Assembly: GCF_036507355.1 (NCBI RefSeq)
Contig: NZ_AP027877.1
Strand: one strand, 5' to 3'
From: Escherichia coli
GTDB lineage: Bacteria; Pseudomonadota; Gammaproteobacteria; Enterobacterales; Enterobacteriaceae
DNA length: 64,000 nucleotides
Under the pieces are notes generated by a model. The model worked only from the letters and a program-made list of their open reading frames with translations. It did no database searches and was not told the origin of the DNA. Shown here piece after piece: positions 4,964 to 36,702 of this stretch. Every line of letters starts with the position of its first letter. The first letter of the stretch is position 1. A program made the translations under genes and the position numbers.

Positions 4964-4980
4964 TGGTGGGTCGTGCAGGA
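4964..4980 (-). repeat. tRNA-Lys 3'-end fragment (17 nt) within a duplicated terminator unit
   Basis: tggtgggtcgtgcagga identical to the 3' end of the tRNA-Lys genes, followed by a non-tRNA stretch tgactcgcttcgctcgccct... Confidence 0.6.
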
Positions 4981-5088
4981 TGACTCGCTTCGCTCGCCCT
5001 TCGGGCCGTCGCCGCGAGCGGCTCCGTTGTTTCGCTGCGCTCAACTCGAACCTGCTGCAGGTTCGAATCTTTGAATATCTCAGATAGC

Positions 5089-5115
5089 AAAAAAGCGCCT
5101 TTAGGGCGCTTTTTT
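5089..5115 (-). terminator. intrinsic terminator of the lysT tRNA operon
   Basis: aaaaaagcgcctttagggcgctttttt hairpin immediately 3' of the last tRNA on the minus strand. Confidence 0.75.
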
Positions 5116-5119
5116 ACAT

Positions 5120-5195
5120 TGGTGGGTCGTGCAGGATTCGAACCTGCGACCAATTGATTAAAAGTCAACTGCTCTACCAACTGAGCTAACGACCC
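5120..5195 (-). tRNA. lysQ: tRNA-Lys (UUU)
   Basis: 76-nt exact reverse complement of the E. coli tRNA-Lys sequence including 3' CCA. Confidence 0.95.
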
Positions 5196-5228
5196 CTTGC
5201 GGGATTATGCTGCTTTAATCATTCAGGA

Positions 5229-5304
5229 TGGTGGGTCGTGCAGGATTCGAACCTGCGACCAATTGATTAAAAGTCAACTGCTCTACCAACTGAGCTAACG
5301 ACCC
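5229..5304 (-). tRNA. lysZ: tRNA-Lys (UUU)
   Basis: 76-nt tRNA-Lys sequence. Confidence 0.95.
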
Positions 5305-5352
5305 ATACGGGTGTTACCTGAAAGATTTCTACTCGGAACCAATCTTTAAAAT

Positions 5353-5369
5353 TGGTGGGTCGTGCAGGA
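5353..5369 (-). repeat. tRNA-Lys 3'-end fragment (17 nt) in the lysY-lysZ spacer
   Basis: second copy of tggtgggtcgtgcagga plus the same tgactcgcttcgctcgccct-cgggccg continuation seen at 4964. Confidence 0.6.
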
Positions 5370-5450
5370 TGACTCGCTTCGCTCGCCCTACGGGCCGTTG
5401 CTGGCGCAACGTTATCCTTCACGCTTAACATCTGAGTTTGATGTTAAAAT

Positions 5451-5526
5451 TGGTGGGTCGTGCAGGATTCGAACCTGCGACCAATTGATTAAAAGTCAAC
5501 TGCTCTACCAACTGAGCTAACGACCC
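5451..5526 (-). tRNA. lysY: tRNA-Lys (UUU)
   Basis: 76-nt tRNA-Lys sequence. Confidence 0.95.
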
Positions 5527-5529
5527 GAG

Positions 5530-5605
5530 TGGTGGGTGATGACGGGATCGAACCGCCGACCCCCTCCTTGTAAGGGAGGTGCTCTCCCAGCTGAGCTAAT
5601 CACCC
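5530..5605 (-). tRNA. valZ: tRNA-Val (UAC)
   Basis: 76-nt reverse complement of E. coli tRNA-Val (GGGTGATTAGCTCAGCTGGGAGAGCACCTCCCTTACAAGGAGGGGGTCGGCGGTTCGATCCCGTCATCACCCACCA). Confidence 0.95.
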
Positions 5606-5656
5606 GATACTGCGCTGGATACTACAAACTACTTCCACCGAACCCACCGTAATTAG

Positions 5657-5732
5657 TGGTGGGTCGTGCAGGATTCGAACCTGCGACCAATTGATTAAAA
5701 GTCAACTGCTCTACCAACTGAGCTAACGACCC
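5657..5732 (-). tRNA. lysW: tRNA-Lys (UUU)
   Basis: 76-nt tRNA-Lys sequence. Confidence 0.95.
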
Positions 5733-5734
5733 GG

Positions 5735-5810
5735 TGGTGGGTGATGACGGGATCGAACCGCCGACCCCCTCCTTGTAAGGGAGGTGCTCTCCCAGCTGAG
5801 CTAATCACCC
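5735..5810 (-). tRNA. valT: tRNA-Val (UAC)
   Basis: 76-nt tRNA-Val sequence. Confidence 0.95.
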
Positions 5811-5845
5811 GATACTACGCTGGATACTACAACTAACTAGGTTAG

Positions 5846-5921
5846 TGGTGGGTCGTGCAGGATTCGAACCTGCGACCAATTGATTAAAAGTCAACTGCTC
5901 TACCAACTGAGCTAACGACCC
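5846..5921 (-). tRNA. lysT: tRNA-Lys (UUU)
   Basis: 76-nt tRNA-Lys sequence; first gene of the operon on the minus strand. Confidence 0.95.
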
Positions 5922-6085: not shown

Positions 6086-6877
6086 TTACATCGCGTTCAG
6101 ACGTTTTTGTGCCTGTTTAGCGCCATCAGTACCAGGGTATTTACTGATAACCTGCTGGTATACGGCTTTCGCTTTTGCGGTGTCACCTTTGTCCTGCATG
6201 ATGACGCCGACTTTAAACATCGCATCTGCAGCCTTTGGTGACTTCGGATAGTTTTTCACTACCGAAGCAAAATAGTACGCCGCATCATCTTTTTTACCCT
6301 TGTTGTAGTTTAACTGACCCAGCCAATAATTGGCGTTTGGCAGGTAAGTTGAATCAGGGTAATTTTTGATGAAATTCTGAAATGCCACCATTGCGTCATC
6401 CTGGCGGGATTTATCCTGCACCAGCGCAATAGCTGCATTGTAATCCGTGTTTGCATCACCGCTTTTCACCGGCGCGCCAGCATTCGCAGTACCAGCATCA
6501 GCTGTCGGCGTCGTTGATGCCGCCGCACCGCTTTGATCACCGCTGGTTGATTGCGCCGCTGCACCACCGCTGCTGAGGCTGTCGATCTGCAACAGGATCT
6601 GCTTTTGCCGCTCCACGACCTGATTCAGTTGATACTGATTTTCCTGAATCTGACCACGCAGGGAATCAATATCGGATTGATTATCAGAGAGTTGTTGCTG
6701 GAGTTGGGTTAAAAGCTGGCTGTGAGCATTAGAAATACGCTCAAGTTGAGTGACGCGGTCTTCGACCGAGCCTGAGCCGACACTACTGATTGGTGCCTGA
6801 GCAAAAGCGGCCCAGGGGGCCGCTATACCAACCAGTAACGACAGACTCAATAGTTGATGTCTGAAGTTACTGCTCAT
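6086..6877 (-). CDS. cpoB: cell-division coordinator CpoB (YbgF), TPR-repeat periplasmic protein
   Basis: 263-aa ORF with signal peptide, coiled-coil and TPR region; last gene of the tol-pal cluster. Confidence 0.9.
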   Translation of the reverse strand: MSSNFRHQLLSLSLLVGIAAPWAAFAQAPISSVGSGSVEDRVTQLERISNAHSQLLTQLQQQLSDNQSDIDSLRGQIQENQYQLNQVVERQKQILLQIDSLSSGGAAAQSTSGDQSGAAASTTPTADAGTANAGAPVKSGDANTDYNAAIALVQDKSRQDDAMVAFQNFIKNYPDSTYLPNANYWLGQLNYNKGKKDDAAYYFASVVKNYPKSPKAADAMFKVGVIMQDKGDTAKAKAVYQQVISKYPGTDGAKQAQKRLNAM

Positions 6878-6886
6878 GCAATTCTC

Positions 6887-7432
<546 letters not shown>

Positions 7433-10197: not shown

Positions 10198-10626
10198 TTA
10201 GATAGGCTGCGTCATTAAACCAACCGATTTCACACCCGCACTATGTAACAAGTTCAGTGCTTTAATTATTTCATCGTAAGGCACATCTTTTGCGCCACCG
10301 ATCAGAAAGACCGTTTTCGGGTTGGCCTTGAAACGGCTGGACACTTCCGCCACCACCTGCTCTGGTGGTAAACGCTCAAGGCGATCTTTCTCAACCACTA
10401 CGGTGTACTGACCAATACCAGACACTTCAACAATCACTGGCGGATTATCGTTACTGCTCACCGCCTGTGATTCAGTTGCGTCTGGCAGATCGACCTCCAC
10501 GCTCTGGGTGATGATGGGCGCTGTCGCCATAAAGATCAGCAACAGCACCAGCAGTACGTCCAGCAACGGTACAATGTTGATTTCGGACTTGAGATCGCGA
10601 CGACCTCGTCCACGCGCTCTGGCCAT
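10198..10626 (-). CDS. tolR: Tol-Pal system protein TolR
   Basis: 142-aa ExbD/TolR-family ORF. Confidence 0.95.
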   Translation of the reverse strand: MARARGRGRRDLKSEINIVPLLDVLLVLLLIFMATAPIITQSVEVDLPDATESQAVSSNDNPPVIVEVSGIGQYTVVVEKDRLERLPPEQVVAEVSSRFKANPKTVFLIGGAKDVPYDEIIKALNLLHSAGVKSVGLMTQPI

Positions 10627-10629: not shown

Positions 10630-11723
<1,094 letters not shown>

Positions 11724-15017: not shown

Positions 15018-15823
15018 CATGACTCCTTGCTCATCGCATGAAGACTCCGAGAGTGAACCCCGTTAGAAAGGGTCACACGCATGCCCCAATACAAAATTAT
15101 TTGCTCGCCTCTATCGTTGCCATTTCATCAAAAGAGGAAAAGACAATGATAAAAAAAGTTACAAATATGTTAATGAATAAACCAAATTGATCCCGTAATT
15201 ATATTACGCCGCAAAATCCTTACAATAAACAGGTTTTTATTGAGCAAATTTGCATTTTTCGACAGTGATCAATTTATAGCGAAATTGTCACGATCTCACC
15301 AATTTGATCTACGACAATTTATCGTGTTTTGCAGAATTTTTTCAAGAATTAAAAATTGATTTATATCAAAACCAATCAAATATGTTAATTATGTATAAAC
15401 CATAGATCATTGGTGATTTTATTGTTAATTTATTGTGAAATATTTATGCAACACAATTATTACAATGAAAAGGTATAGATAAAAAACCAGTATTTTATTT
15501 AACAGAACCGCCTTATCCACTTTTTATAATACCAATTGATTAGAGTAGCCAATTTGTTGCTATTTTACATAACATATTTTTATCAAAGTTAATTGATTGT
15601 TACCTTTATGAGCACCGACCGTAAGCCCGTTATGTTATTGTTTCATTAGTAATAATCACTTAAATGTATCGATGAAACAGGTATGACTTACCGGGAGTGA
15701 TTGTTTCTGAGTGAACAGAGGCCACTTTCGCCTGATAAATGAAAAATGAGCGATTTTTGCAAGTTAGTTTTTCTATAGCCGAGTACGCTCAGCGCCTCGC
15801 TTGATTACAATGAGGTTGCTGCT

Positions 15824-16768
15824 ATGAGTCCTGATAATATCGGTTCGGCTGTCAATCGCTTCTCAGGTTGGCCATCTAATGATTCTCTAAAAACAGATAA
15901 AGAATCAATGACATCACCCGTGACTGTGCAGGTAATAAAGATGATTGCCGCCATCCTTGACCCACATCGGATAGTCGTTGGAATCGATACACTTTATACA
16001 ACGCAGCGCGAAACATTTACCTCAGAGAGTCAACAGCTCATTGAATCAGCATTGCAAACACTTCATGTGATGAATTTAAATAATCTGGAAACAAATCGCG
16101 ATGAAGAAGGTCACTATCTGGCTTTTGAATATAACGTTGACACCTCTGACAGAATAACCGTTTCTGCTTATAATGAAAAAAAGCCTGGCTGCTATGGCCA
16201 ATGTCTTGTAATACAGGATGACGAAACAGACTTATTTAACCTGATAAAAATTAAAATTTTCGAAGCCAGGCATAATTATGTCGCTCAATTGATGAGCGAT
16301 CCGGAATTTATGTTCAAATTCAGTTATAGCGCTCAACAAAATAGATTAGAACCTCATCTTCTGGTTCCCGCTTATTTCCCTCTAAAAACAAACGAACCGG
16401 TTACGCAAGAGGATGTACTGTTACTTTATCGTTTCTTTAAAATGAATGATGATTTTAATAAATTAACATCAGATGAATACATGAGTATCCTGACACCTCT
16501 GATGAAGTGTGAGCGTAGCGTCCACGACAACAACAGGTATGTGACGGGCAAAGATACCCTTCTTCTGGACTATCCTCCTTCTGGTAACCAGATACATTTC
16601 CATGTTTTCCCTGACGAATCAGCAACACTAGTCCTTTATTTTTCAAACAATGACCTTGAATGTTTCGTCTTTGAAAGAGATATTCCTAGCCAGTATCGCT
16701 TTTTCAAAATGTTTACCAATCTGGCACTGGTTATAGATCAGTTAACCGAAGCCAATAAAATACTTTAA
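15824..16768 (+). CDS. hypothetical protein (314 aa), AT-rich island ORF of unknown function
   Basis: long ORF in AT-rich DNA at the edge of the island; no family recognised by eye; not part of the K-12 backbone as I recall it. Confidence 0.55.
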   Translation: MSPDNIGSAVNRFSGWPSNDSLKTDKESMTSPVTVQVIKMIAAILDPHRIVVGIDTLYTTQRETFTSESQQLIESALQTLHVMNLNNLETNRDEEGHYLAFEYNVDTSDRITVSAYNEKKPGCYGQCLVIQDDETDLFNLIKIKIFEARHNYVAQLMSDPEFMFKFSYSAQQNRLEPHLLVPAYFPLKTNEPVTQEDVLLLYRFFKMNDDFNKLTSDEYMSILTPLMKCERSVHDNNRYVTGKDTLLLDYPPSGNQIHFHVFPDESATLVLYFSNNDLECFVFERDIPSQYRFFKMFTNLALVIDQLTEANKIL

Positions 16769-16848
16769 TTTTCTATATATCCCTATGGCTAATATTGCTA
16801 AACAATGCCTGGGGATTAATTTTTATTACTCACGGAAAGATTTAAATA

Positions 16849-17271
16849 ATGATACCATCTCAGATCTCTTTCAATACCCTTCCAGTCAATGCAACATACG
16901 CTTCAGAGACAACAGTTGACACACAAAAATTCTCTGACATCCTCTACTCAGCGGGGTGTTCCCTAAAGGATATGGCTTATCTGAGCAGATGTCTGGCATC
17001 AATACACCCGACTATCGCCAAAAACATTTATGAAACAGAAAATCTCAGCGATCAAAAATTACTGCATATTGATTGCCGTAGTACAAATGAAATCAAGATA
17101 AATATCTTTTTTGGTCAGCAAAGAGAAGGGTTAATTGAAATTAGTTCTGACACAGTTATTTTTTCGATACTGTCTTCATTGATTGACTCCGCCATTTCTA
17201 AATTTCAACACCAAAACCCGGTTAACGGTTTAGTTAATCCTGAAATATTGTATGAGGATTATACTGATTAA
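16849..17271 (+). CDS. hypothetical protein (140 aa), small acidic protein of unknown function
   Basis: co-oriented 80 bp downstream of the 314-aa ORF, same AT-rich composition. Confidence 0.5.
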   Translation: MIPSQISFNTLPVNATYASETTVDTQKFSDILYSAGCSLKDMAYLSRCLASIHPTIAKNIYETENLSDQKLLHIDCRSTNEIKINIFFGQQREGLIEISSDTVIFSILSSLIDSAISKFQHQNPVNGLVNPEILYEDYTD

Positions 17272-17818
17272 ATCCACCCTGTCGCGAAAAATGGCCTGCG
17301 TTATTGCCAGACGTAATAAAACCTTTGATTAACGTTACTCATACTGGTAGCACCTTCATGTACCTCTCTTTTTTACGAAAAATCAAAAGAGCTAACTAAG
17401 GTCATAATTCGCATGAATCATTAACCATTTGTTATTTTCAACATTATTTTTACATTAAGCAGAGATGAATTGCAGTGAAATTCGACTTAAATCTTATGAA
17501 ATGCATTTACTCATGGCTAAAACCACGTCACAAAAATGCAAATTAGAAGTAGATCACAATTATCTCAATACATTAAATCAAGTTAATTTTAAAAATTTAA
17601 CATTCATGACATTAGTTGACATAACACACTGAATTAACATGGAAATTTAAAAACACACTTTAAACAATCATTTCCCGAAAGACATTTTGAAAATAGATCA
17701 ATTGCAACATTACGGTCAGATAAAGACACTCCTGTGATATTAAACCTGTGCCGTTATGAACGGCCATAAATACGACGTGTGTAACTTATTTTACTCTCTG
17801 TCTTACAAAGGATTACCC

Positions 17819-18268
17819 ATGAAGAAAGCAACACTTGTGATTGGCGTTATTGGCGCGGACTGCCATGCAGTAGGCAATAAAGTTCTGGACCGCGTTTTTA
17901 GCAACCACGACTTCAGAGTCATTAATCTGGGCGTAATGGTCAGCCAGGACGAATATATTGATGCTGCCATTGAAACTGGCGCTGACGCGATTGTCGTCTC
18001 CTCTATCTATGGGCATGGCGATATCGACTGTCTGGGCATGCGCGAACGCTGCATCGAGCGTGGACTGGGGGACATCCTGCTCTATGTGGGCGGTAACCTG
18101 GTGGTCGGAAAACATGACTTCGCTGACGTGGAAACCAAATTCAAAGAGATGGGATTTGATCGCGTCTTTGCCCCAAGTCATGACTTAGAAGATGTTTGTC
18201 AGCTGATGGCCCACGATATCAACCAACGTCATGACATTGATACTCGTATTCTTGAAGAGGCTATCTGA
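17819..18268 (+). CDS. glmS: glutamate mutase sigma (S) subunit, B12-binding (methylaspartate mutase small subunit)
   Basis: [24 protein letters not shown]... contains the DxHxxG cobalamin-binding motif and resembles Clostridium GlmS/MutS; start set at the Met preceded by aaaggatt. Confidence 0.88.
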
Positions 18269-19656
18269 TGCAAATCGTCTCTGTCGATATTGGATCGACG
18301 TGGACCAAAGCAGCCCTCTTCACCCGGGAGGGGGACGCGTTAACGTTGGTTAACCACGTACTGACCCCAACCACCACCCATCATCTGGCGAAGGGGTTTT
18401 TCTCCAGCCTGAACCAAGTGTTAAACGTAGATAATGCCCTCCCCCTGTTAAACAGCGGTGAGGTTGCATTGAAGTATTCCTCCTCTGCCAAAGGTGGGCT
18501 GGCGGTTGCCGCAATGGGATTGGTGCCTTCTATCACCCTGGAAACCGCGAAAGTAACCGCTCACTCTGCGGGTGCTAAAATTGCGCAATATTACGCCTAC
18601 AAGCTGAACCGCCGTGATATCCAGGCACTGGAAGAAACGCAGCCCGATATTCTCTTGTTCACCGGCGGCACCGACGGCGGAGAAGAAAGCTACGGACTGA
18701 ATAACGCCCGTGTGCTGGCAGAATCCAAACTCGACTGCGCCATTATTTATGCCGGAAACCGGGATATTCAGGACGAGGTGCAGGAGCTCCTCGGGCATAA
18801 AGACCTGACCATCGTCGACAATGTTCTGCCCGATCTTGACCATCCGAACCCTTTAGCCGCACGCCAGGCTATTTGCGACATATTCCTTAAACGCATCGTT
18901 AAAGGGAAAGGGCTGGATGTCATTGTTGATAAAACAGGCGAAGAACCAATGCCGACACCATGGACGGTCTTTGAACTGGTCAAGGCAATCAGTAACGTCG
19001 ATCACAGCTGGAAAGAGTTCATGCTGATCGACATGGGCGGCGCAACCACCGATGTTTATTCCGTCTGTGCCAACACGCTCTCGCCCGACACCGTTTTACA
19101 CGGCGTACCGGAACCCTTCGTAAAACGGACGGTGGAAGGCGATCTGGGAATGCGCGTCTCGGCAGTGGTGGTTGGTGAAAGTGCGAAAGAGTTAGTCAAT
19201 GTGAATTTTGCTCAGCAACCCGCACAGCTGGACGCTTTTTATCATTACCTCCGTCATCTAGTCGCTCATCCCGACTACTTACCCGCAAATGCAGAAGAGA
19301 AATATTTCGATACCGTCCTGGCCGGACTGTGTGTGGGTTATGCCACCGAAAGACATGCGGGCACCAAAAAAGAGGTCTGCACCTGCGTCGGCAATGTCGA
19401 TTTACAGATGGGACGTGACCTGACAACCGTGCGTAAAGTCGTCGGATCCGGCGGATGGCTCTCGCGTGCCAGTCAGTTCGATATGCATCACTGGTTGAAA
19501 TACCGCGAGTTAAACGACGACGGTAAACGCATTCTCTTACCGACCGAATTTGAATATTACCGCGATTCCCGGGGGCTATTACCACTGCTGGCAAACGTCG
19601 CCAGAGTCGATCCGCTGGCCGCCGCGCGCACCAGTATTCAATGCTTAACCCTATAA
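18268..19656 (+). CDS. glmL: glutamate mutase accessory protein GlmL/MutL (actin-fold ATPase)
   Basis: 462-aa ORF between the S and E subunit genes as in clostridial mutS-mutL-mutE operons. Confidence 0.8.
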   Translation: MQIVSVDIGSTWTKAALFTREGDALTLVNHVLTPTTTHHLAKGFFSSLNQVLNVDNALPLLNSGEVALKYSSSAKGGLAVAAMGLVPSITLETAKVTAHSAGAKIAQYYAYKLNRRDIQALEETQPDILLFTGGTDGGEESYGLNNARVLAESKLDCAIIYAGNRDIQDEVQELLGHKDLTIVDNVLPDLDHPNPLAARQAICDIFLKRIVKGKGLDVIVDKTGEEPMPTPWTVFELVKAISNVDHSWKEFMLIDMGGATTDVYSVCANTLSPDTVLHGVPEPFVKRTVEGDLGMRVSAVVVGESAKELVNVNFAQQPAQLDAFYHYLRHLVAHPDYLPANAEEKYFDTVLAGLCVGYATERHAGTKKEVCTCVGNVDLQMGRDLTTVRKVVGSGGWLSRASQFDMHHWLKYRELNDDGKRILLPTEFEYYRDSRGLLPLLANVARVDPLAAARTSIQCLTL

Positions 19657-19674
19657 CAATTAAGGCTGCAATCA

Positions 19675-21120
19675 ATGGAACTTCGAAATAAGAAATTAAC
19701 CCATGACGAATTCATGACCGAGCGGCAACAGGTACTGAAAACCTGGGAAACCGGCAAGGATGTTGAAAACTTTGAAGATGGCGTTAAATACCAACAAACC
19801 ATCCCTGAGCATAAACGCTTCTCTCTTGCGCTGCTGAAAGCAGACAAGGAAGGTAAAACCCTTAGCCAACCGCGCGCAGGTGTGGCGCTGATGGACGAAC
19901 ACATCGAACTGCTGAAAACACTACAAGAAGAGTGCGATCTGCTGCCAAGCACCATCGATGCATATACCCGTCTGAATCGGTACGAAGAAGCGGCTGTAGG
20001 GATTAAAAAATCCATCGAAGCCGGAACCTCTAAACTGAACGGTTTACCGGTAGTTAACCATGGTGTCGCAGCTTGCCGTCGCCTCACCGAAACCCTGCAA
20101 AAACCGCTACAGATCCGCCACGGCACGCCAGATGCGCGTCTGCTGGCTGAAATCTCAATGGCCAGCGGCTTTACCAGTTATGAAGGCGGTGGCATTTCCT
20201 ACAACATTCCGTATGCCAAACGCGTAACGCTGGAAAAATCGATCCGCGACTGGCAGTACTGCGACCGTTTAATGGGGATGTATGAAGAACACGGGATCCG
20301 CATCAACCGCGAACCGTTTGGCCCACTAACGGGTACGCTGATCCCGCCGTTTATCTCGCATTCTATCGCGATAATCGAAGGCTTGCTGGCACTGGAACAG
20401 GGTGTGAAATCTATCACCGTTGGTTATGGCCAGGTCGGCAGCCTGACGCAGGATGTTGCGGCGATCCAGTCTCTGCGTGAACTTGCACACGAATATTTTC
20501 AGAGCTATGGCTATACCGACTATGAATTGAGTACCGTGTTTCACCAGTGGATGGGCGGCTTTCCGGAAGACGAATCGAAAGCGTTCGCTATTATCTCCTG
20601 GGGTGCAGCCGTCGCGGGGATGTCTGGTGCCACCAAAGTCATCACCAAAAGTCCGCACGAAGCCTGGGGTATCCCGACTGCCGCTGCCAACATTCAGGGG
20701 CTGAAAGCCTCCCGCCAGATGCTCAACATGGTCAATGAGCAGAAATTCCCGCCGTGCCCTGCGGTTGAACTGGAAATTGAACTGATTAAGAGCGAGGTTC
20801 GCGCTGTACTGAATAAAGTGTTCGAACTGGGTAATGGTGATATTGCGCGCGGTACGGTGCTGGCATTTGAAGCGGGCGTACTGGATGTGCCATTTGCGCC
20901 AGCCGCCTGCAACGCGGGCAATATTCTTCCGGTCCGTGACAACACCGGCGCGATACGCGTACTGGAAGCCGGAGCCGTTCCATTGCCAAAAGATATTCTC
21001 GATCTCCACCACGATTACGTTGCGGAACGCGCACGCTTTGAAGGACGCCAACCGACATTCCAGATGGTTGTAGATGACATCAATGCTGTATCCCACAGTA
21101 AATTAATAGGAAGACCATAA
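19675..21120 (+). CDS. glmE: glutamate mutase epsilon (E) catalytic subunit
   Basis: 481-aa ORF MELRNKKLTHDEFMTERQQVL... with extended similarity to clostridial GlmE (QPRAGVALMDEHIELL, PSTIDAYTR, GGGISYNIPYAK, REPFGPLTGTL, FQMVVDD). Confidence 0.9.
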   Translation: MELRNKKLTHDEFMTERQQVLKTWETGKDVENFEDGVKYQQTIPEHKRFSLALLKADKEGKTLSQPRAGVALMDEHIELLKTLQEECDLLPSTIDAYTRLNRYEEAAVGIKKSIEAGTSKLNGLPVVNHGVAACRRLTETLQKPLQIRHGTPDARLLAEISMASGFTSYEGGGISYNIPYAKRVTLEKSIRDWQYCDRLMGMYEEHGIRINREPFGPLTGTLIPPFISHSIAIIEGLLALEQGVKSITVGYGQVGSLTQDVAAIQSLRELAHEYFQSYGYTDYELSTVFHQWMGGFPEDESKAFAIISWGAAVAGMSGATKVITKSPHEAWGIPTAAANIQGLKASRQMLNMVNEQKFPPCPAVELEIELIKSEVRAVLNKVFELGNGDIARGTVLAFEAGVLDVPFAPAACNAGNILPVRDNTGAIRVLEAGAVPLPKDILDLHHDYVAERARFEGRQPTFQMVVDDINAVSHSKLIGRP

Positions 21121-22361
21121 TGAAAATAAAACAGGCTCTGTTCACCGCTGGCTACTCCTCATTCTATTTCGATGACCAGCAGGCGATAAAAAACGGAGCG
21201 GGTCATGACGGCTTTTTTTATACCGGGGAGCCGGTAACACAGGGGTTTAACGCCGTTCGTCAGGCCGGGGAGTGCGTATCGGTACAGTTGATTCTGGAAA
21301 ACGGCGCGGTCGCTGTAGGTGACTGTGCTGCCGTACAGTATTCCGGGGCAGGTGGTCGCGACCCACTGTTCCTCGCAGAGCTCTTTATTCCGTTCCTCAA
21401 CGACCATATCAAGCCATTACTGGTAGGCCGCGATGTGGATGCTTTCCTGCCGAATGCCCGTTTCTTCGACAAATTGCGTATTGACGGCAACTTGCTGCAT
21501 ACCGCCGTGCGCTACGGATTATCACAGGCGCTGCTTGATGCTACCGCGCTGGCAACCGGCCGTCTGAAAACTGAAGTGGTCTGTGATGAATGGCAGTTGC
21601 CACGCGTGGCGGAATCCATTCCATTATTTGGTCAGAGCGGCGACGATCGATATATCGCCGTCGATAAGATGATCCTTAAGGGCATCGACGTGCTGCCCCA
21701 TGCGCTGATTAATAACGTCGAAGAGAAGCTGGGCTTTAAAGGTGAAAAACTGCGCGAATATGTCCGCTGGTTGTCGGATCGCATTCTAAGCAAGCGCACC
21801 AGCGCACGCTACCACCCAACCTTGCACATCGATGTATACGGCACTATCGGTCTGATCTTCGATATGGATCCGCTTCGCTGTGCGCAATACATCGCCAGCC
21901 TGGAAAAAGAAGCGCAAGGCCTGCCGCTCTACATTGAAGGGCCGGTCGATGCCGGTAACAAGCCCGATCAAATTCGCCTGCTGACCGCGATTACCAAAGA
22001 GCTGACGCGCCTCGGTTCCGGCGTGAAAATTGTGGCCGATGAATGGTGTAACACCTACCAGGATGTTGTTGATTTCACTGATGCCGCCAGTTGTCACATG
22101 GTGCAAATCAAAACCCCGGATCTGGGCAGTATTCACAACATCGTCGATGCGGTTCTTTACTGCAACAGCCACAGCATGGAAGCGTACCAGGGCGGCACCT
22201 GCAATGAAACTGATGTCAGTGCCCGCACCTGTGTCCACGTCGCCCTTGCCGCTCGCCCTATGCGTATGCTGGTAAAGCCAGGGATGGGCTTTGACGAAGG
22301 CCTCGATATCGTCTTCAACGAAATGAATCGTACTATCGCGCTGTTGCAGGCTAAGGATTAA
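21120..22361 (+). CDS. mal: 3-methylaspartate ammonia-lyase
   Basis: 413-aa ORF; motifs GDCAAVQYSGAGGRDPLF, PHALINNVEEKLG, HMVQIKTPDLG match clostridial methylaspartase (enolase superfamily). Confidence 0.9.
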   Translation: MKIKQALFTAGYSSFYFDDQQAIKNGAGHDGFFYTGEPVTQGFNAVRQAGECVSVQLILENGAVAVGDCAAVQYSGAGGRDPLFLAELFIPFLNDHIKPLLVGRDVDAFLPNARFFDKLRIDGNLLHTAVRYGLSQALLDATALATGRLKTEVVCDEWQLPRVAESIPLFGQSGDDRYIAVDKMILKGIDVLPHALINNVEEKLGFKGEKLREYVRWLSDRILSKRTSARYHPTLHIDVYGTIGLIFDMDPLRCAQYIASLEKEAQGLPLYIEGPVDAGNKPDQIRLLTAITKELTRLGSGVKIVADEWCNTYQDVVDFTDAASCHMVQIKTPDLGSIHNIVDAVLYCNSHSMEAYQGGTCNETDVSARTCVHVALAARPMRMLVKPGMGFDEGLDIVFNEMNRTIALLQAKD

Positions 22362-22364
22362 CAA

Positions 22365-22565
22365 ATGGCTCGTTCTTTTAAAGTCTTATCGCCAACAGCA
22401 ATCCTCGGGTATGGATTCCCGGAAGAGAGCTTCCGCAAAGCGATGGCAGAATCACCCGATCTGATCGCCGTTGATGCAGGCTCTTCCGATCCAGGCCCCC
22501 ACTACCTCGGGCAGGCAAACCGTTTACCGATCGCGCAGGGGTCAAGCGCGATCTGCGCTATATGA
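22365..22565 (+). CDS. N-terminal segment of a DUF1446 (AtuA-like) protein, separated from the main ORF by a frame change
   Basis: 66-aa ORF ending in ATGA overlap with the next ORF; the next ORF's frame is open upstream to 22475, so the two likely form one gene. Confidence 0.45.
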   Translation: MARSFKVLSPTAILGYGFPEESFRKAMAESPDLIAVDAGSSDPGPHYLGQANRLPIAQGSSAICAI

Positions 22566-23734
22566 TCACCGCAGGCGTGCAAAATAATATACCGGTGGTG
22601 ATCGGAACGGCCGGCGGTTCTGGTGCCGCTCCACACCTGGAGTGGTGCCGAGAAATAATTCATGAGATTGCCCAGGAAGAGCACCTCTCGTTCTCGATGG
22701 CGTTGATCCCGGCAGACGTTGACAAAGCCATCGTCCACCAGGCGCTGGATAACGGCAAAATCACGGCGCTGGATTTTGTCCCGCCGTTAACCCACGACGC
22801 GATTGACGAAAGTACGTATATCGTCGCGCAAATGGGCATCGAACCCTTCCAGCGGGCGCTAAAAGAAGGCGCGCAAGTGGTGCTGGGTGGGCGCGCTTAC
22901 GACCCGGCCTGCTTTGCTGCGCTACCGATCATGCAAGGCTTTGATGAAGGTCTGGCGCTGCATTGTGGGAAAATCCTTGAATGCGCGGCAATCGCCGCAA
23001 CGCCCGGCTCAGGCTCTGACTGTGCGATGGGCATCATTGATGACAACGGCTTTACGCTGAAGACATTTAATCCGAAGCGTAAATTTACCGAAACGTCAGC
23101 AGCTGCACACACACTGTATGAGAAATCCGATCCCTACTTCCTGCCAGGACCTGGCGGCGTGTTGAACCTGAAAGGCTGCACATTTAAAGCAGTCAATGAC
23201 GGCGAAGTCTACGTCAGCGGTTCTAAGCATGAAGAAACGCCGTATGCCCTGAAACTGGAAGGTGCACGACGGGTGGGCTTCCGCTGTCTGACCATCGCCG
23301 GAACGCGCGACCCGATTATGATCGCCGGGATCGATAAACTCATCGATGAAGTCAAAACCAGCGTTTCGCGTAACCTGTCGCTCGACGATGACAGCATTCG
23401 CATCAATTTCCACCTGTACGGCAAAAACGGGGTGATGGGAGACCATGAACCGATGCAAACTGCCGGGCATGAGCTGGGGATTGTTCTTGATGTAGTTGCA
23501 CCGACCCAGGAAATTGCCAATAGCGTTTGCTCGCTGGTGCGCTCTACCATGCTGCACTACGGCTATGAAAACCGCATCGCTACCGCAGGTAATCTGGCGT
23601 TCCCGTTCTCCCCTTCTGATATCCAGGGCGGGCCGGTATACGAATTTTCCATATATCACCTGATTGAAGCCAACGACGCTCTGCGTTTTGATTTCCATAT
23701 TGAACAGGTGACGCCAGAAGGAGTTCAGGCATGA
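22562..23734 (+). CDS. DUF1446 (AtuA-like) family protein, main part
   Basis: 390-aa ORF; combined with the upstream 66-aa ORF gives about 456 aa, the usual DUF1446 size; followed by its usual small DUF4387 partner. Confidence 0.65.
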   Translation: MITAGVQNNIPVVIGTAGGSGAAPHLEWCREIIHEIAQEEHLSFSMALIPADVDKAIVHQALDNGKITALDFVPPLTHDAIDESTYIVAQMGIEPFQRALKEGAQVVLGGRAYDPACFAALPIMQGFDEGLALHCGKILECAAIAATPGSGSDCAMGIIDDNGFTLKTFNPKRKFTETSAAAHTLYEKSDPYFLPGPGGVLNLKGCTFKAVNDGEVYVSGSKHEETPYALKLEGARRVGFRCLTIAGTRDPIMIAGIDKLIDEVKTSVSRNLSLDDDSIRINFHLYGKNGVMGDHEPMQTAGHELGIVLDVVAPTQEIANSVCSLVRSTMLHYGYENRIATAGNLAFPFSPSDIQGGPVYEFSIYHLIEANDALRFDFHIEQVTPEGVQA

Positions 23735-24048
23735 AACAGTCAATTGTCTCACTGGCGCAAGTCATTCGTTCGAAAAATGCCGGACCTTACGAACTGGTTT
23801 TAGATATTTTATTTAAAACGAAAGAAAACTATGAGCGAGTTAAATCATCAGGGCAATTAACCCCAGAACTGATTGCGCGCTTATATCATGTTGAACCTGA
23901 CTTTATTCATCGTATTGTCTGGTTTGATCCTTCTAACGCAGTAAAAATCGTCATGCCACGAGATATTATCTCCGGGAATGTAGGTGACAATGATGTCTAT
24001 GGTGCACAGCAACATGCACCTTTATTAAATATGAGTTTCGATTTGTAA
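23731..24048 (+). CDS. DUF4387 family small protein (partner of DUF1446/AtuA-like proteins)
   Basis: 105-aa ORF translationally coupled (ATGA overlap) to the DUF1446 ORF. Confidence 0.6.
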   Translation: MKQSIVSLAQVIRSKNAGPYELVLDILFKTKENYERVKSSGQLTPELIARLYHVEPDFIHRIVWFDPSNAVKIVMPRDIISGNVGDNDVYGAQQHAPLLNMSFDL

Positions 24049-24131
24049 AAATCCGAATACTTTTAGCCAACTGACATCCCGTCACTTATTGCAGTTCAAC
24101 ACTTCAGCTATTTGTAAGGTTGTAATAGCAG

Positions 24132-24163
24132 GTAGATGCCTGAATCTCTATTCAGGCATCTAC
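24132..24163 (+). terminator. strong stem-loop between the DUF4387 gene and the transporter gene (terminator or attenuator)
   Basis: perfect 14-bp inverted repeat gtagatgcctgaat/attcaggcatctac with 4-nt loop, followed by a T-rich stretch. Confidence 0.4.
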
Positions 24164-24208
24164 TTCTCCTGATTCTGATTTATCGCCGTGCACCTGATGG
24201 AGGAAAAA

Positions 24209-25489
24209 ATGAAGAAAATAAGTTTAACCACGATGATTCTTTTGGCGCTGGTACTTGGAATGATTATCGGCGTAGTGCTCAATAACACTGCTTCACCGGA
24301 AACAGCAAAACTCTATGCGCAAGAAATATCGATATTCACGACGATTTTCTTACGACTGATAAAAATGATTATCGCTCCGTTAGTGGTCTCTACCCTGGTG
24401 GTAGGTATTGCTAAAATGGGCGATGCCAAAGCCCTTGGTCGTATTTTTTCTAAAACACTCTTTTTATTTATTTGCGCCTCATTGCTGTCAATTGCCTTAG
24501 GCTTGATAACGGTAAATTTCTTCATGCCAGGCACAGGAATTAATTTTGTTGCACACGGTGCCGAAACCACAGGAGTGGTCGCGTCAGAACCCTTTACGCT
24601 AAAAGTATTTATTTCGCATGCTTTCCCCACCAGCATTGTCGATGCCATGGCGCACAATGAAATTTTGCAAATCGTGGTGTTCTCAATTTTCCTCGGCTGT
24701 AGCCTGACGGCGATTGGCGAGAAAGGCAGCGCCATCGTTCACGCCTTAGATTCGCTGGCACATGCCATGTTAAAGCTCACTGGCTACGTCATGCTCTTCG
24801 CTCCCCTGACCGTATTCGCCGCTATTTCAGCATTGATTGCTGAACGAGGACTGGCAGTTATGGTGAGCGCCGGGATCTTTATGGGTGAATTTTATTTCAC
24901 CATGTTATTACTTTGGGTGCTGCTTATCGGTCTGGCCATCGTTTATGTCGGCCCCTGCATCAGACGCCTGACCCGCGCCCTTTCGGAACCCGCCCTGCTG
25001 GCATTTACCACATCCAGTTCTGAAGCGGCTTTTCCGGGAACGCTTGAAAAACTGGAGCAATTTGGCGTTTCCCCCAAAATTGCCAGCTTTGTCTTACCCA
25101 TTGGCTACTCATTTAATCTCGTTGGATCAATGGCCTACTGCTCCTTCGCCACAGTTTTCATCGCCCAGGCCTGCAATATCCATTTATCCATCGGTGAGCA
25201 AATCACCATGCTGTTGATCCTGATGTTGACCTCGAAAGGAATGGCTGGCGTACCACGCGCCTCAATGGTGGTTATCGCCGCCACGCTCAACCAGTTCAAT
25301 ATTCCGGAAGCGGGGCTGATCTTGCTGATGGGCGTTGATCCGTTCCTTGATATGGGGCGTTCCGCGACAAACGTCATGAGCAACGCAATGGGCGCTGCGA
25401 TGGTGAGTCGGTGGGAAGGCGAACATTTCGGCGAGGGCTGTCGGGGTAAAGCATTAAAACCCAATGAATCGAACGTTGCTCTGCCCTGA
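24209..25489 (+). CDS. dicarboxylate/amino acid:cation symporter (DAACS family; glutamate/aspartate or C4-dicarboxylate transporter)
   Basis: polytopic membrane ORF with DAACS-like N-terminus; start chosen at MKKISL preceded by a GGAGGA ribosome-binding site (ORF track starts 21 nt earlier at 24188). Confidence 0.8.
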   Translation: MKKISLTTMILLALVLGMIIGVVLNNTASPETAKLYAQEISIFTTIFLRLIKMIIAPLVVSTLVVGIAKMGDAKALGRIFSKTLFLFICASLLSIALGLITVNFFMPGTGINFVAHGAETTGVVASEPFTLKVFISHAFPTSIVDAMAHNEILQIVVFSIFLGCSLTAIGEKGSAIVHALDSLAHAMLKLTGYVMLFAPLTVFAAISALIAERGLAVMVSAGIFMGEFYFTMLLLWVLLIGLAIVYVGPCIRRLTRALSEPALLAFTTSSSEAAFPGTLEKLEQFGVSPKIASFVLPIGYSFNLVGSMAYCSFATVFIAQACNIHLSIGEQITMLLILMLTSKGMAGVPRASMVVIAATLNQFNIPEAGLILLMGVDPFLDMGRSATNVMSNAMGAAMVSRWEGEHFGEGCRGKALKPNESNVALP

Positions 25490-25596
25490 GGGGGATCTTA
25501 AGCAATCAGAAGCCAATGACTACGCATTTTTATAAGCCGGATCATGAAGTTAGACGGCAATTAAGTAACACTAACGTTTAAGGTGAAAAGTGAAAT

Positions 25597-27249
25597 ATGT
25601 CCAAACCATTTATCTGGCAAGAACCGTTTCTACAAAATAAAGACGGTACAGAATATACATTAATTAGCGATCAACATATTACAGTAACGGAATTAGACGG
25701 CGAAGAAGTGATAAAAATCGCTCCTGAAGCATTAACGCTGCTTGCCCGGCAGGCATTTTATGAAGCCTCTTTTTTCTTACGTTCCGCTCATTTGCAACAG
25801 GTCGCCAGCATTCTTAACGATCAGCAGGCCAGCAGTAATGATAAATACGTTGCGTTGCAGTTATTACGTAATGCTGAAGTCTCAGCAAAAGGGGTATTAC
25901 CCAACTGTCAGGATACCGGCACCGCAACTATTGTTGCCAGTAAAGGGCAACAGATATGGACCGGAAGTAACGACGCCGAAGCTTTAAGTAAAGGCATTTA
26001 CAGTACTTTCCAGGAAAATAATCTGCGCTTTTCACAAAATGCGCCGCTGGATATGTATACCGAAGTCAATACGCAAACCAATCTCCCGGCGCAGATTGAT
26101 ATCAGCGCTGTCGCTGGTGATGAGTACCATTTTCTCTGTGTTAATAAAGGGGGCGGCTCCGCCAATAAAGCCGCGCTTTATCAGGAAACCAAATCCTTAT
26201 TGCAACCAGAAAAACTGACCGCATTTTTAATCGAAAAAATGAAATCGCTGGGCACCGCTGCCTGCCCGCCTTACCACATCGCCTTTGCCGTCGGAGGGCT
26301 TTCAGCCGATCAAACCTTAAAAGTTGCCAAGCTGGCCTCAACGAAATATTACGACAATTTGCCCACCAGCGGAAACGAGCAGGGACAAGCATTCCGTGAT
26401 ATTGAGCTGGAAAAAGCGTTGCTCGAGGCCAGTCAGCAATTTGGTATTGGTGCACAATTTGGGGGGAAATATTTCGCTCATGATATTCGCGTCATTCGTC
26501 TGCCGCGTCACGGTGGCTCTTGCCCGATAGCTATGGCGCTCTCCTGTTCTGCCGATCGCAATATCAAAGCAAAAATTAACAAACACGGTATCTGGCTAGA
26601 AAAACTCGAACACAATCCGGGGCAATATATTCCAGCCTCATTGCGGGAAGAAAATCACGCGCAACATGTACAACTGGATCTAAACCGTCCGTTGCGTGAC
26701 GTGATGCTGGATCTCGCCAGATTACCGGTAGGTACCCGCGTGTCGTTAAGTGGTCCCATCGTAGTGGCGCGCGATATCGCCCACGCCAAAATAAAAGCGC
26801 GGCTGGATAGCGGCGAATCGATGCCGGAGTACCTGAAGCATCATATTGTCTATTACGCTGGCCCGGCGAAAACACCGGAGAACATGGCCTGCGGTTCACT
26901 GGGTCCAACCACGGGCGGTCGAATGGATGGTTATGTCGATACCTTCCAGGCGGCCGGCGGCAGTCTGGTGATGTTATCGAAAGGTAACCGCAGCCAGCAG
27001 GTCACCGATGCCTGTCACAAACATGGCGGCTTCAATCTGGGAAGTATTGGCGGTGCAGCTGCGTTACTGGCGCAAGAATATGTCAAAAGTCTGCGTTGCC
27101 TGGAATACCCGGAGCTGGGTATGGAAGCGGTGTGGATGATGGAAGTGGAAAATCTGCCCGCATTCATCCTGGTAGATGATAAAGGCAATAATTTCTTTAG
27201 TCAGTTTGAGCAGCAACACCGCTGCGCCAGTTGCCCTGCGGGACATTAA
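25597..27249 (+). CDS. fumD: class I (Fe-S) fumarate hydratase homologue, mesaconase/fumarase FumD type
   Basis: 550-aa ORF collinear with E. coli FumA ([40 protein letters not shown]); clustered with glutamate mutase and methylaspartase as described for fumD. Confidence 0.85.
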
Positions 27250-27258
27250 GGAAAATGA

Positions 27259-27861
27259 ATGGAAGCGCGAATTTCAACTGAACGGCATGTGCAGCGCCAA
27301 CAGAAATTGAAGGAACAGGTCGATACGCGCGTCGCGGCGGCGATAGAGAAAAAAGGGATCTTGATTGTTTTCACCGGCAACGGCAAAGGGAAATCCACTG
27401 CCGCGTTTGGTACTGTGACGCGCGCGGTGGGTCATGGCAAAACGGTGGGGGTTGCGCAGTACATCAAGGGGCAATGGGACAACGGCGAATACAACCTTCT
27501 CCAGCCGCTGGGGGTTGAGTTTCATATTATGGGAACCGGTTTTACCTGGGAGACACAGAACCGGCAAGCGGATATCGACGCGGCGAAAGAGGTCTGGTCG
27601 GAAAGCAAACGGATGCTGGCTGACAAGCGTTACGACTTAGTGGTGCTTGATGAGCTGACCTATATGCTGGCTTACCATTATTTGGATACCGAAGAAGTGA
27701 TCGCTTCTCTGCAAAACCGCCCGGCACAACAAAGTGTCATTGTCACCGGACGCGGTTGCCACAGTCAGATATTAAAAATGGCGGATACGGTAAGCGAAAT
27801 CCGCCCCGTCAAACATGCTTTTGATAACGGCATTCAGGCCCAGCCGGGTATAGACTGGTAA
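27259..27861 (+). CDS. cob(I)yrinic acid a,c-diamide / cob(I)alamin adenosyltransferase (BtuR/CobA family)
   Basis: 200-aa ORF with P-loop GNGKGKSTAAFG and high overall similarity to E. coli BtuR. Confidence 0.85.
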   Translation: MEARISTERHVQRQQKLKEQVDTRVAAAIEKKGILIVFTGNGKGKSTAAFGTVTRAVGHGKTVGVAQYIKGQWDNGEYNLLQPLGVEFHIMGTGFTWETQNRQADIDAAKEVWSESKRMLADKRYDLVVLDELTYMLAYHYLDTEEVIASLQNRPAQQSVIVTGRGCHSQILKMADTVSEIRPVKHAFDNGIQAQPGIDW

Positions 27862-27864
27862 TAA

Positions 27865-27897
27865 CTGCGCCTGGCATCCCGCCAGGCGCAGGTTTTA
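27865..27897. terminator. bidirectional intrinsic terminator between the adenosyltransferase gene and the convergent LysR gene
   Basis: ctgcgcctggc-atcc-gccaggcgcag hairpin followed by gtttta. Confidence 0.6.
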
Positions 27898-28557
27898 CAT
27901 CTCCTGCGGTACGACCGATTTCGCCAGCAACCATTCACGAAATTGCTGCAAGTGCGGTGAGTCAGACTTCTCTTCCTGCCACGTCATAATAAAACGATTA
28001 CCGGTACGAATAGGCACATCACAGGGAATCACCATATCGCCACTATCCAAATCATGTTGAATAGCGAAACGTGGTAACAGCGCCACGCCGAGATTAGAGC
28101 GCACGGCGGCAATCAGCATTGAAAGCAAATCGAAACGTGGTCCGTTATTGACCAACGGACTGCTAACGCCAGATAAAGCAAACCACTCTTCCCAGCCAGT
28201 AATACGGGTGCTTTGATGCAGAAGCGGTAACTCAGTAAGCAGTTCTGCCACTGACAGCTTTTGATCGGACATTGCAAGCAAACTGCCGCTGCATACCGGC
28301 AAAATCTCCTCATCAAAGAGATATTCTACTTCCGCCCAGGGCGCGCAAAAATTTTCGCGCATAATGACAGCATCGTACTCCCGATTAAGAAAATCGCCGT
28401 TATTAGCTAAAGAATGAATATTAACAATAATATCGGGATGTAACTTTGTGAATTCATGTAAATTTGGGATCAACCAGTGGGTACTAAAAGTAGGATTAAC
28501 GGCAAGTTCAATAACCTGAACCGTAGGCTGCCAGGTCATAATGGTATTGGTATCGCG
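27895..28557 (-). pseudogene. LysR-family transcriptional regulator, C-terminal effector-domain portion (gene interrupted by IS1)
   Basis: 214-aa ORF from an internal Met; reading frame continues upstream (RDTNTI) to the IS1 junction. Confidence 0.8.
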
Positions 28558-28612
28558 GGTGATGCTGCCAACTTACTGATTTAGTGTATGATGGTGTTTT
28601 TGAGGTGCTCCA

Positions 28613-28888
28613 GTGGCTTCTGTTTCTATCAGCTGTCCCTCCTGTTCAGCTACTGACGGGGTGGTGCGTAACGGCAAAAGCACCGCCGGACATCAGCGCT
28701 ATCTCTGCTCTCACTGCCGTAAAACATGGCAACTGCAGTTCACTTACACCGCTTCTCAACCCGGTACGCACCAGAAAATCATTGATATGGCCATGAATGG
28801 CGTTGGATGCCGGGCAACAGCCCGCATTATGGGCGTTGGCCTCAACACGATTTTACGTCACTTAAAAAACTCAGGCCGCAGTCGGTAA
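28613..28888 (+). CDS. insA: IS1 protein InsA
   Basis: 91-aa [46 protein letters not shown]... identical in character to IS1 InsA. Confidence 0.95.
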
Positions 28889-29310
28889 CCTCGCGCATAC
28901 AGCCGGGCAGTGACGTCATCGTCTGCGCGGAAATGGACGAACAGTGGGGCTATGTCGGGGCTAAATCGCGCCAGCGCTGGCTGTTTTACGCGTATGACAG
29001 GCTCCGGAAGACGGTTGTTGCGCACGTATTCGGTGAACGCACGATGGCGACGCTGGGGCGTCTTATGAGCCTGCTGTCACCCTTTGACGTGGTGATATGG
29101 ATGACGGATGGCTGGCCGCTGTATGAATCCCGCCTGAAGGGAAAGCTGCACGTAATCAGCAAGCGATATACGCAGCGAATTGAGCGGCATAACCTGAATC
29201 TGAGGCAGCACCTGGCACGGCTGGGACGGAAGTCGCTGTCGTTCTCAAAATCGGTGGAGCTGCATGACAAAGTCATCGGGCATTATCTGAACATAAAACA
29301 CTATCAATAA
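28807..29310 (+). CDS. insB: IS1 transposase InsB frame (expressed as InsAB' by -1 frameshifting)
   Basis: 167-aa ORF in the -1 frame overlapping the insA 3' end, typical IS1 organisation. Confidence 0.9.
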
Positions 29311-29325
29311 GTTGGAGTCATTACC

Positions 29326-29577
29326 GGTATCGCGTTCCAGCTTATTTAATGTTTCTTTTACTATCCCCAGGTAATACTTCCCAGCATCATTAAGAAAAAT
29401 GCGTTTTTTAGAGTGTGAAAATAACGGAGTACGTAAAAATTCCTCCAGCGCACTTACTTGTCTGAATACTGCACTTTGGGTTAACGCTAACTCCTCTGCC
29501 GCTCTGGTATAACTTTCATGACGTGCGACGACCTCAAAAGTCACCAGCAGTTCCGTTTTAGGTATTTTCCCTCGCAT
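29326..29577 (-). pseudogene. LysR-family transcriptional regulator, N-terminal HTH portion (gene interrupted by IS1)
   Basis: MRGKIPKTELLVTFEVVARHESYTRAAEELALTQSAVFRQVSALEEFLRTPLF... is a LysR-type HTH; the frame runs into IS1 after ...KLERDT. Confidence 0.8.
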
Positions 29578-30243
29578 AATGCCGTCCCTTAAAAATAGTT
29601 TAAACCATCAAAAATACATTACTTATTACGAAGTAATGGTAACCAAAGCAGCAATAAATAATTTATAAGAATCATGATTGACATTTATAAACCAGTAAGC
29701 CTGGCGTGACAAATATCTTAATCAGATAATAATAATCCGAAAAGCACAGCGCCTTTCGAATTATCCGGAATCACATTAAGTGAAAATTATTAAATTGATA
29801 TCATTTATCATATCTGTGGATATTATGATAAACAATCAACAAAGATTTTATTTTTGATTTATAGCATATCCCTCTAAGAATTTTTGCGATGCTGCAATAT
29901 CCGGGGTAAAGACCCGATCCTGGCTGACAAATGGCACGACTTGACGAAAAGCGGTGAACATCGCTTTTGTTGATTTACTTAACGCTACGGTCAAACGCTG
30001 GGAAGCCAGTGCATCAGGTAACGATTCGAAATTCGCCGTCGTTCTTATTCGTGGCTTGCGGTCGGTTGCGGCAATCCACAGTGGCTGTGGTCATGCAGTC
30101 AAGCCTGCAGTCAGATTTCGACCGTGGTTAACCGTTTAAGGCATAAAAAAGGCCATCATACGATGGCCAACCATGTCGAAACCGACAGCCCTTCGCCATT
30201 CCTGTAGAGGGAAGCGGCGAGGGCTATTTCTTATTACAGATAT

Positions 30244-36584: not shown

Positions 36585-36702
36585 CGCCTGATGCGCTGCG
36601 CTTATCAGGCCTACGGGTAATGACTTGTAGGCCGGATAAGACGTTCACGCCGCATCCGGCACTGGTTGCCTGATGCGACGCTTGCGCGTCTTATCAGGCC
36701 TA
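36585..36702. repeat. REP/BIME palindromic repeat cluster between sucA and sdhB
   Basis: several gcctgatgcg...cttatcaggcctacg units in alternating orientation. Confidence 0.7.

Follow-up and report, generated by a model that had tools for sequence, protein, structure and literature searches.

Two AT-rich orphan genes between cydA and the glutamate mutase operon of Escherichia coli are probably genuine, taxonomically restricted genes

We analyzed two adjacent open reading frames (ORFs) of 314 and 140 amino acids (aa), here called ORF1 and ORF2, which lie between cydA and the glutamate mutase operon in a 64,000-nucleotide stretch of Escherichia coli DNA (RefSeq assembly GCF_036507355.1, contig NZ_AP027877.1; hereafter the window). 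An earlier note, made from the letters alone, had singled them out as the least explained coding DNA nearby, and that description is upheld here. Located next to the cytochrome bd-I operon, the pair occurs in about one in five complete E. coli genomes. Judging from their sequence evolution, ORF1 and ORF2 are genuine protein-coding genes under purifying selection, and we regard them as probable Escherichia ORFans.

Organization of the locus

The exact coordinates of the two co-oriented ORFs, which stand 80 bp apart, were confirmed. The features of the locus are as follows (window positions).

15021-15394: conserved cydA regulatory region, adjoining the island-specific spacer
15395-15823: AT-rich island-specific spacer 5' of ORF1, presumed site of the ORF1 promoter
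15812-15815, plus strand: GAGG Shine-Dalgarno-like motif, 8 nt 5' of the ORF1 ATG, read from sequence
15824-16768, plus strand: ORF1 (ECs0767; WP_001359073-like), ATG start, 314 aa, Escherichia-restricted orphan, a RefSeq coding sequence (CDS) named 'hypothetical protein'
16769-16848, plus strand: ORF1-ORF2 spacer, 80 bp, with a weak GGAAAG ribosome-binding motif
16834-16839, plus strand: the GGAAAG motif, 9 nt 5' of the ORF2 ATG and weaker than the GAGG of ORF1
16849-17271, plus strand: ORF2 (ECs0766; WP_000613119-like), ATG start, 140 aa, Escherichia/Shigella-restricted orphan, a RefSeq CDS
17272-17818: ORF2-glmS spacer, 547 bp, GC about 30%, presumably the control region of the glm operon
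17465-17632: 55-aa ORF inside the ORF2-glmS spacer, without CDS annotation in current RefSeq

The glmS gene begins at 17819, in the same orientation as the pair. Homology to K-12 covers cydB and cydA up to position 15394 and restarts at 30141, at the end of sucD; beyond 15394, no residual K-12 similarity was found (local alignment score 19, against a shuffle mean of 20.9). The intervening 14.7 kb (15395-30140) is an alternative segment in place of the K-12 genes mngR-mngA-mngB. Besides ORF1 and ORF2, it holds glmS, glmL, glmE and the genes for methylaspartate ammonia-lyase, AtuA-like and DUF4387 proteins, the fumarase FumD, a transporter, a LysR regulator and CobO. The start of ORF1 lies 430 bp in from the left end of this segment, in agreement with the earlier placement of the pair at an island edge, between the cydA regulatory region and glmS. 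The window is chromosomal DNA of E. coli. The 2.8-kb stretch holding the two ORFs is 99% identical to its counterparts in O157:H7, O55:H7, O169:H41 and further strains. In O157:H7 Sakai the equivalents are ECs_0767 (ORF1) and ECs_0766 (ORF2), both named 'hypothetical protein' and flanked by cydA (ECs_0768) and the gene for glutamate mutase S (ECs_0764).

Promoter and terminator scans gave matches no commoner than in shuffled sequence, and we assigned no promoter; the terminator scan found no terminator-like site between ORF1 and ORF2 or 3' of ORF2. The flanking spacers matched no Rfam family and, specifically, no cobalamin riboswitch. Repeats of the kind that flank mobile cassettes were sought around the pair, and only short imperfect ones were present, in about the number expected by chance on a rough hand estimate. 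One 24-nt imperfect inverted repeat (79% complementary, at 15683-15706 and 17662-17685) brackets ORF1 and ORF2. Roughly four such pairs would be expected by chance per 3 kb of this base composition, again by a rough hand estimate, and the repeat coincides with no observed deletion boundary; we judged it to be due to chance.

Evidence for coding and selection

When the stretch 15395-17818 was shuffled 3000 times, the longest ORF reached at least 314 aa in no shuffle and at least 140 aa in three, with a maximum of 149. Compared with an E. coli allele at 88% aa identity, ORF1 has a ratio of nonsynonymous to synonymous substitution rates (dN/dS) of 0.42, and comparison with an E. albertii allele at 63% aa identity again gives 0.42 (Fisher p=2e-7); for ORF2 the ratio is 0.31 (p=0.005). 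The annotated frame is stop-free and has the lowest dN/dS of the six, with one antisense frame that shares its third positions mirroring it. At about 23% nucleotide divergence from E. albertii, ORF1 is exactly 314 codons long with neither indel nor stop, whereas the adjoining spacer holds 9 gap columns. The E. albertii copy of ORF2 aligns collinearly with ORF2 across 134 codons, with no indel and a single in-frame stop at codon 36. Both ORFs are annotated as CDS in all 39 genomes that we sampled evenly down the match ranking. Given the ORF lengths relative to the shuffles, the substitution pattern, the absence of indels and the annotation, we take both to be real genes. By the earlier note, a lack of translation would have spoken against its reading; the evolution of the ORFs instead indicates translation.

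In the same genome pairs, the dN/dS of cydA, cydB, glmS, glmL and glmE is 0.00-0.16 and their dN does not exceed 0.009, compared with a dN of 0.044-0.057 for ORF1 and ORF2 within E. coli and of 0.22 for ORF1 against E. albertii. At the protein level the pair evolves 10-100 times faster than its neighbours, yet under purifying selection, and its dN/dS exceeds the glm values 3- to 25-fold. The cydA-ORF1 spacer is 85.6% identical to that of E. albertii and 96% identical to that of another E. coli allele; between E. coli alleles, the ORF1-ORF2 spacer is 95% identical and the ORF2-glmS spacer 92%, with 6 gap columns.

Composition and predicted protein features

The base composition of the pair is lower in GC than its flanks, as first described. 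In 400-bp windows, GC is 0.35-0.41 over ORF1 and ORF2 and about 0.30 in both flanking spacers; cydAB stands at about 0.52-0.57 and the glm genes at 0.50-0.54. Whole-gene GC is 0.385 for ORF1 and 0.366 for ORF2, and GC at third codon positions (GC3) is 0.359 and 0.348, respectively, against 0.53-0.65 in cydAB and glmSLE (0.53-0.59 in the glm genes).

The predicted proteins, of 36 kDa (ORF1) and 16 kDa (ORF2), are both acidic and hydrophilic. Their isoelectric points are 4.83 and 4.67, the latter confirming that the smaller partner is acidic. Neither contains a signal peptide or a membrane or hydrophobic segment. Disorder is predicted at both N-termini (ORF1 residues 1-31, ORF2 residues 1-24). 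Among the 50 ORFs of the window, ORF2 ranks first and ORF1 second in Ser, Thr, Asn, Gln and Pro content over residues 1-25, with counts of 13 and 11, respectively, where the mean is 6.4 (sd 2.5), although this is a crude composition test. The first 25 residues of ORF2 include no basic residue, and its first charged residue is E20. We regard this N-terminal composition as a weak point, which may reflect secretion or simple disorder.

In the predicted secondary structure, one pattern is seen three times: two or three helices, then a sheet of three strands, then a long helix. In ORF2, a low-confidence model places the elements as H25-34, H39-50, H54-60, three strands and H101-122. The predicted structure models of both proteins are of low confidence, with predicted local distance difference test scores of 46 (ORF1) and 39 (ORF2). 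The threefold pattern led us to ask whether ORF1 arose by tandem duplication of a module like ORF2. We rejected this as unproven, since hhalign comparison of the two halves of ORF1 and of ORF2 with one another was not significant (best E=0.013, over 28 columns). The invariant residues C127, H260 and N276 of ORF1 have a spacing reminiscent of a papain triad; this was noted by eye on an unreliable model and is a lead only, and no peptidase family scored against ORF1 even at E<=10.

Searches for relatives

A word-seeded search of 5.8 billion proteins with ORF1 returned only five clusters, all of the same protein, and an exhaustive profile search of 1.84 billion representative proteins returned only fragments of ORF1 itself. 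Scanning one genome for each of 100,044 species located ORF1 at Escherichia loci only, apart from two contigs of metagenome-assembled genomes that look mis-binned. These contigs, labelled 'Collinsella sp.' (L009) and 'Citrobacter sp.' (L010), show 92-94% identity to E. coli at ORF1 and are, to judge by that identity, almost certainly mis-binned E. coli. For ORF2, two word-seeded searches of the 5.8 billion proteins (with a single sequence and with a profile), which were not exhaustive, found no relative outside Escherichia and Shigella. Every database name for either protein is 'hypothetical' or 'uncharacterized protein'.

In keeping with the first impression that neither ORF belongs to a recognized family, searches of Pfam, NCBIfam, PADLOC, PHROGs and PDB sequences, with single sequences and profiles, gave nothing significant for either protein, and PADLOC-DB yielded no family for either at E<=1. 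Homology to a characterized housekeeping protein, which would have spoken against an orphan status, was likewise not found. The two best matches, both below threshold, were dismissed as noise. That of ORF1 residues 35-102 to the NCBIfam 'kinase' PRK07667 (E=0.042) covers a stretch, VVGIDTLYTTQRET, without the P-loop GxxxxGK[ST], and the other match is to DNTTIP1_dimer (E=0.31). Among 50,697 phage records, tblastn gave no match for the pair at E<=1. Three 'plasmid' matches were rejected, since the records, filed as plasmids in PLSDB, measure 0.7-4.9 Mb and are by that size mislabelled chromosomes or chromosome fragments (NZ_CP141089.1, 4.94 Mb; NZ_CP134663.1, 4.90 Mb; CP088669.1, 0.73 Mb).

Distribution, ancestry and loss

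Of 5426 complete E. coli genomes, 1138 (21%) contain the pair, in single copy and on the chromosome. Carriers include O157:H7, O55:H7, O145:H28, enterotoxigenic E. coli (ETEC) O169:H41 and E. albertii. Co-occurrence of the two ORFs holds within these E. coli genomes, and it breaks down in some E. albertii and E. albertii-like contigs, where ORF1 is kept without an intact ORF2.

In some E. albertii, the order is cydA, ORF1, ORF2 (with the stop at codon 36) and then glm. Other E. albertii-like contigs have cydA, ORF1, a 258-aa ORF and then sucD, and lack the glm cluster; their similarity to the window stops at 16875, 27 bp into ORF2. The 258-aa ORF (L002 9907-10683; truncated in L011 11862-12206) replaces ORF2 and the whole glm cluster and constitutes a third cassette between sucD and cydA. 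Its N-terminus resembles a signal peptide, and no Pfam match is recorded for it.

Disruptions are scattered. ORF1 is frameshifted in the E. albertii type strain, and Shigella dysenteriae 1617 encodes only a truncated ORF2. In E. coli 23CRST031 (NZ_AP045800.1 2805572-2808516), a deletion associated with IS903B and IS1 took ORF1, ORF2 and nearly the whole glm island; what remains is part of the LysR gene, together with the island-specific spacer as far as window position 15741. In Escherichia sp. MOD1-EC7003, both ORFs are broken by enterobacterial repetitive intergenic consensus (ERIC) elements and two-thirds of ORF2 is deleted, with glm intact. The ERIC copies, of about 121-128 bp, lie at positions 10349-10469 and 11091-11218 of that locus (L012), and one of them holds the exact ERIC1R primer sequence, ATGTAAGCTCCTGGGGATTCAC. 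The usual site of ERIC copies is intergenic DNA; those of MOD1-EC7003 act as gene-disrupting insertions. ORF1 is intact where ORF2 is deleted (L002) or nonsense-mutated (L014-L016).

From the E. albertii arrangements and these scattered disruptions, we conclude that the pair has occupied the cydA flank since before the split of E. coli and E. albertii and has been inherited vertically at one fixed chromosomal locus. The same comparisons indicate that ORF1 and ORF2 are dispensable, having been lost or broken independently several times, and that ORF1 outlasts ORF2.

Expression and literature

Published RNA-seq data give at most 12 reads per kilobase per million mapped reads for both genes in 11 laboratory and environmental conditions; both are thus almost untranscribed under the conditions sampled. 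Neither protein has been detected by proteomics, and a full-text literature search found neither gene mentioned by locus tag or protein accession.

Discussion

We identified two real, selected genes in a place where databases offer only names. That both are annotated as hypothetical proteins in more than 1000 genomes was already known. What our analysis adds is evidence for selection, for ancestry at the locus, for the separability of ORF1 from ORF2 and of both from the glm cluster, and for the lack of relatives elsewhere. ORF1 and ORF2 are probably genuine Escherichia ORFans, that is, taxonomically restricted genes that are fast-evolving, weakly constrained, AT-rich, near-silent and dispensable. 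Such genes of E. coli were reportedly characterized by Daubin and Ochman in Genome Research in 2004. Our searches found no homologue of the pair outside a narrow clade, its genes are A+T-rich, and their rate is elevated with dN/dS below 1. As in other E. coli ORFans, poor expression, dispensability and the label 'hypothetical protein' accompany these properties. The pair differs from them in the length of ORF1, 314 aa being long for an ORFan, in showing no association with phages, and in occupying one chromosomal site across species of the genus, beside a core respiratory operon.

Because AT-rich genes are here enclosed by AT-rich spacers on both sides, H-NS-type (xenogeneic) silencing would be likely for both, and expression may be confined to a niche or condition outside those sampled. 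The proteins most likely bind other macromolecules and do not act as enzymes, given that they have no catalytic motif, that their disordered N-termini are rich in Ser, Thr, Asn and Pro, and that they are predicted to contain helix/three-stranded-sheet/long-helix modules. As things stand, they count among the many ordinary ORFans of E. coli. Nevertheless, experimenters gain a cleaner starting point: genes that are real and under selection, separable from the glutamate-fermentation cluster, and no obligate two-gene module.

An unlikely but more far-reaching reading is that ORF1, with or without ORF2, is the founder of a new Escherichia-specific fold family that acts in the interaction with host, phage or competitor, for example as an effector delivered by a type III secretion system or as an immunity-like binder. 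H-NS-type repression would then restrict expression to a gut niche, and the fast evolution, with dN 10-100 times that of the neighbours, would reflect an arms race and not mere relaxed constraint. If the proteins proved to be secreted or related to conflict, a genus-specific factor would be added to the biology of enterohaemorrhagic E. coli.

The earlier note had likened the larger protein and its small acidic partner to an effector/chaperone pair, a toxin/immunity pair or a two-gene defence module, and none of these likenesses drew support from any test that we ran: there was no PADLOC, Pfam or NCBIfam match and no copy on phages or true plasmids, the locus is vertical, and ORF1 is kept without ORF2. 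We consider it distinctly unlikely that one or both proteins are type III effectors secreted through the locus of enterocyte effacement (LEE) or the E. coli type III secretion system 2 (ETT2), with ORF2 as a small effector or a partner of ORF1. Tir-CesT is an example of a type III effector with an adjacent class I chaperone, and the pair recalls such systems in its order of a larger protein followed by a small acidic one of about 140 aa, its AT-richness and its polar, disordered N-termini. These N-termini are the two richest in Ser, Thr, Asn, Gln and Pro in the window, that of ORF2 being uncharged before E20; many non-LEE effector genes are similarly AT-rich and fast-evolving, and the carriers include O157:H7, O55:H7, O145:H28 and E. 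albertii. However, the test of N-terminal composition is crude, and neither protein resembles any effector or chaperone family. ORF2 has no Pfam match that would place it with CesT/SycE-type chaperones, and its modelled order of secondary-structure elements and its disordered N-terminus appear unlike class I chaperones. The intact pair is also annotated in many strains without an attaching/effacing label, such as ETEC O169:H41 and poultry, mastitis and wastewater isolates; by these strain labels alone, the carriers apparently include non-attaching/effacing pathotypes. Moreover, the locus is a metabolic island and neither a pathogenicity island, a prophage nor an effector exchange locus, and ORF1 persists without ORF2.

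The neighbouring operon suggests another role. Kronen & Berg (PMC4682846) described the O157:H7 cluster as comprising glutamate mutase, methylaspartase, the mesaconase FumD, a transporter, CobA and a LysR regulator, with homologous clusters in Klebsiella, Citrobacter, Enterobacter, Salmonella, E. fergusonii, Yersinia and Morganella. ORF1 and ORF2 could be Escherichia-specific accessory or regulatory factors of this glutamate mutase/methylaspartate cluster, serving assembly, cobalamin handling or expression control. They lie directly upstream of glmS in the same orientation, the same arrangement recurs in some E. albertii, and linkage within E. coli is essentially complete, with the glm operon in 1135 genomes and the pair in 1138. 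Nevertheless, we hold this to be very improbable. We found no ORF1 or ORF2 homologue in Klebsiella, Citrobacter, Enterobacter, Salmonella, Yersinia or Morganella, in a search that was not exhaustive for ORF2. Neither ORF is therefore a conserved component of the pathway, and an accessory role is contradicted by this cross-genus distribution. The base composition also differs (GC3 of 0.35 against 0.53-0.59), 547 bp of AT-rich spacer separate ORF2 from glmS, and dN/dS is several-fold that of the glm genes, as given above. The cluster survives without the ORFs, with glm intact and both ORFs disrupted in MOD1-EC7003, and some E. albertii keep ORF1 in the absence of the cluster. ORF1 and ORF2 are thus not members of the methylaspartate pathway.

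We likewise give very little credence to a conflict module, whether toxin-antitoxin, toxin-immunity (or orphan immunity) or two-gene anti-phage defence. Like type II toxin-antitoxin and polymorphic toxin-immunity systems, the pair consists of small co-oriented genes for acidic proteins that evolve rapidly and are patchily present, here at a locus with alternative cassettes. Unlike them, it has no toxin, antitoxin or immunity domain and no PHROG match, its genes are 80 bp apart without translational coupling, and it is non-mobile, in single copy at one chromosomal site. Antitoxins and defence genes are normally expressed constitutively, whereas transcription of the pair is nearly nil. In contrast to anti-phage defence systems, it matches no defence family, lies outside any defence island among metabolic neighbours (cydAB and glutamate fermentation) and shows no horizontal spread. 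Since upstream ORF1 stays intact where downstream ORF2 is deleted or carries a nonsense mutation, an obligate toxin-antidote pair in which ORF2 serves as antidote is excluded. The reverse polarity is untouched by this argument, and the earlier loss of ORF2 with retention of ORF1 would be in keeping with a toxin role for ORF2 and an antidote or immunity role for ORF1.

Least probable of all is that the ORFs are non-functional, either untranslated or decaying remnants held open by short divergence times: extremely low expression, the absence of proteomic detection, repeated independent disruptions and a relatively high dN/dS would suit this, but the annotated frame alone has a dN/dS significantly below 1 (p=2e-7 for ORF1, p=0.005 for ORF2), ORF1 is free of indels and stops at 23% nucleotide divergence whereas the adjacent spacer holds 9 gap columns, ORFs of such length are absent (ORF1) or rare (ORF2) in shuffles of the AT-rich stretch, and both are annotated intact in 39 of 39 sampled genomes.

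Other features of the window

The RNA features of the window backbone were as expected. They comprise a tRNA-Lys/Val cluster with RtT elements, the CpoB/ybgF thermometer, naRNA4, ES036 and isrA, at 4964-5921, 6848-6986, 36630-36700, 54080-54122 and 56309-56437.

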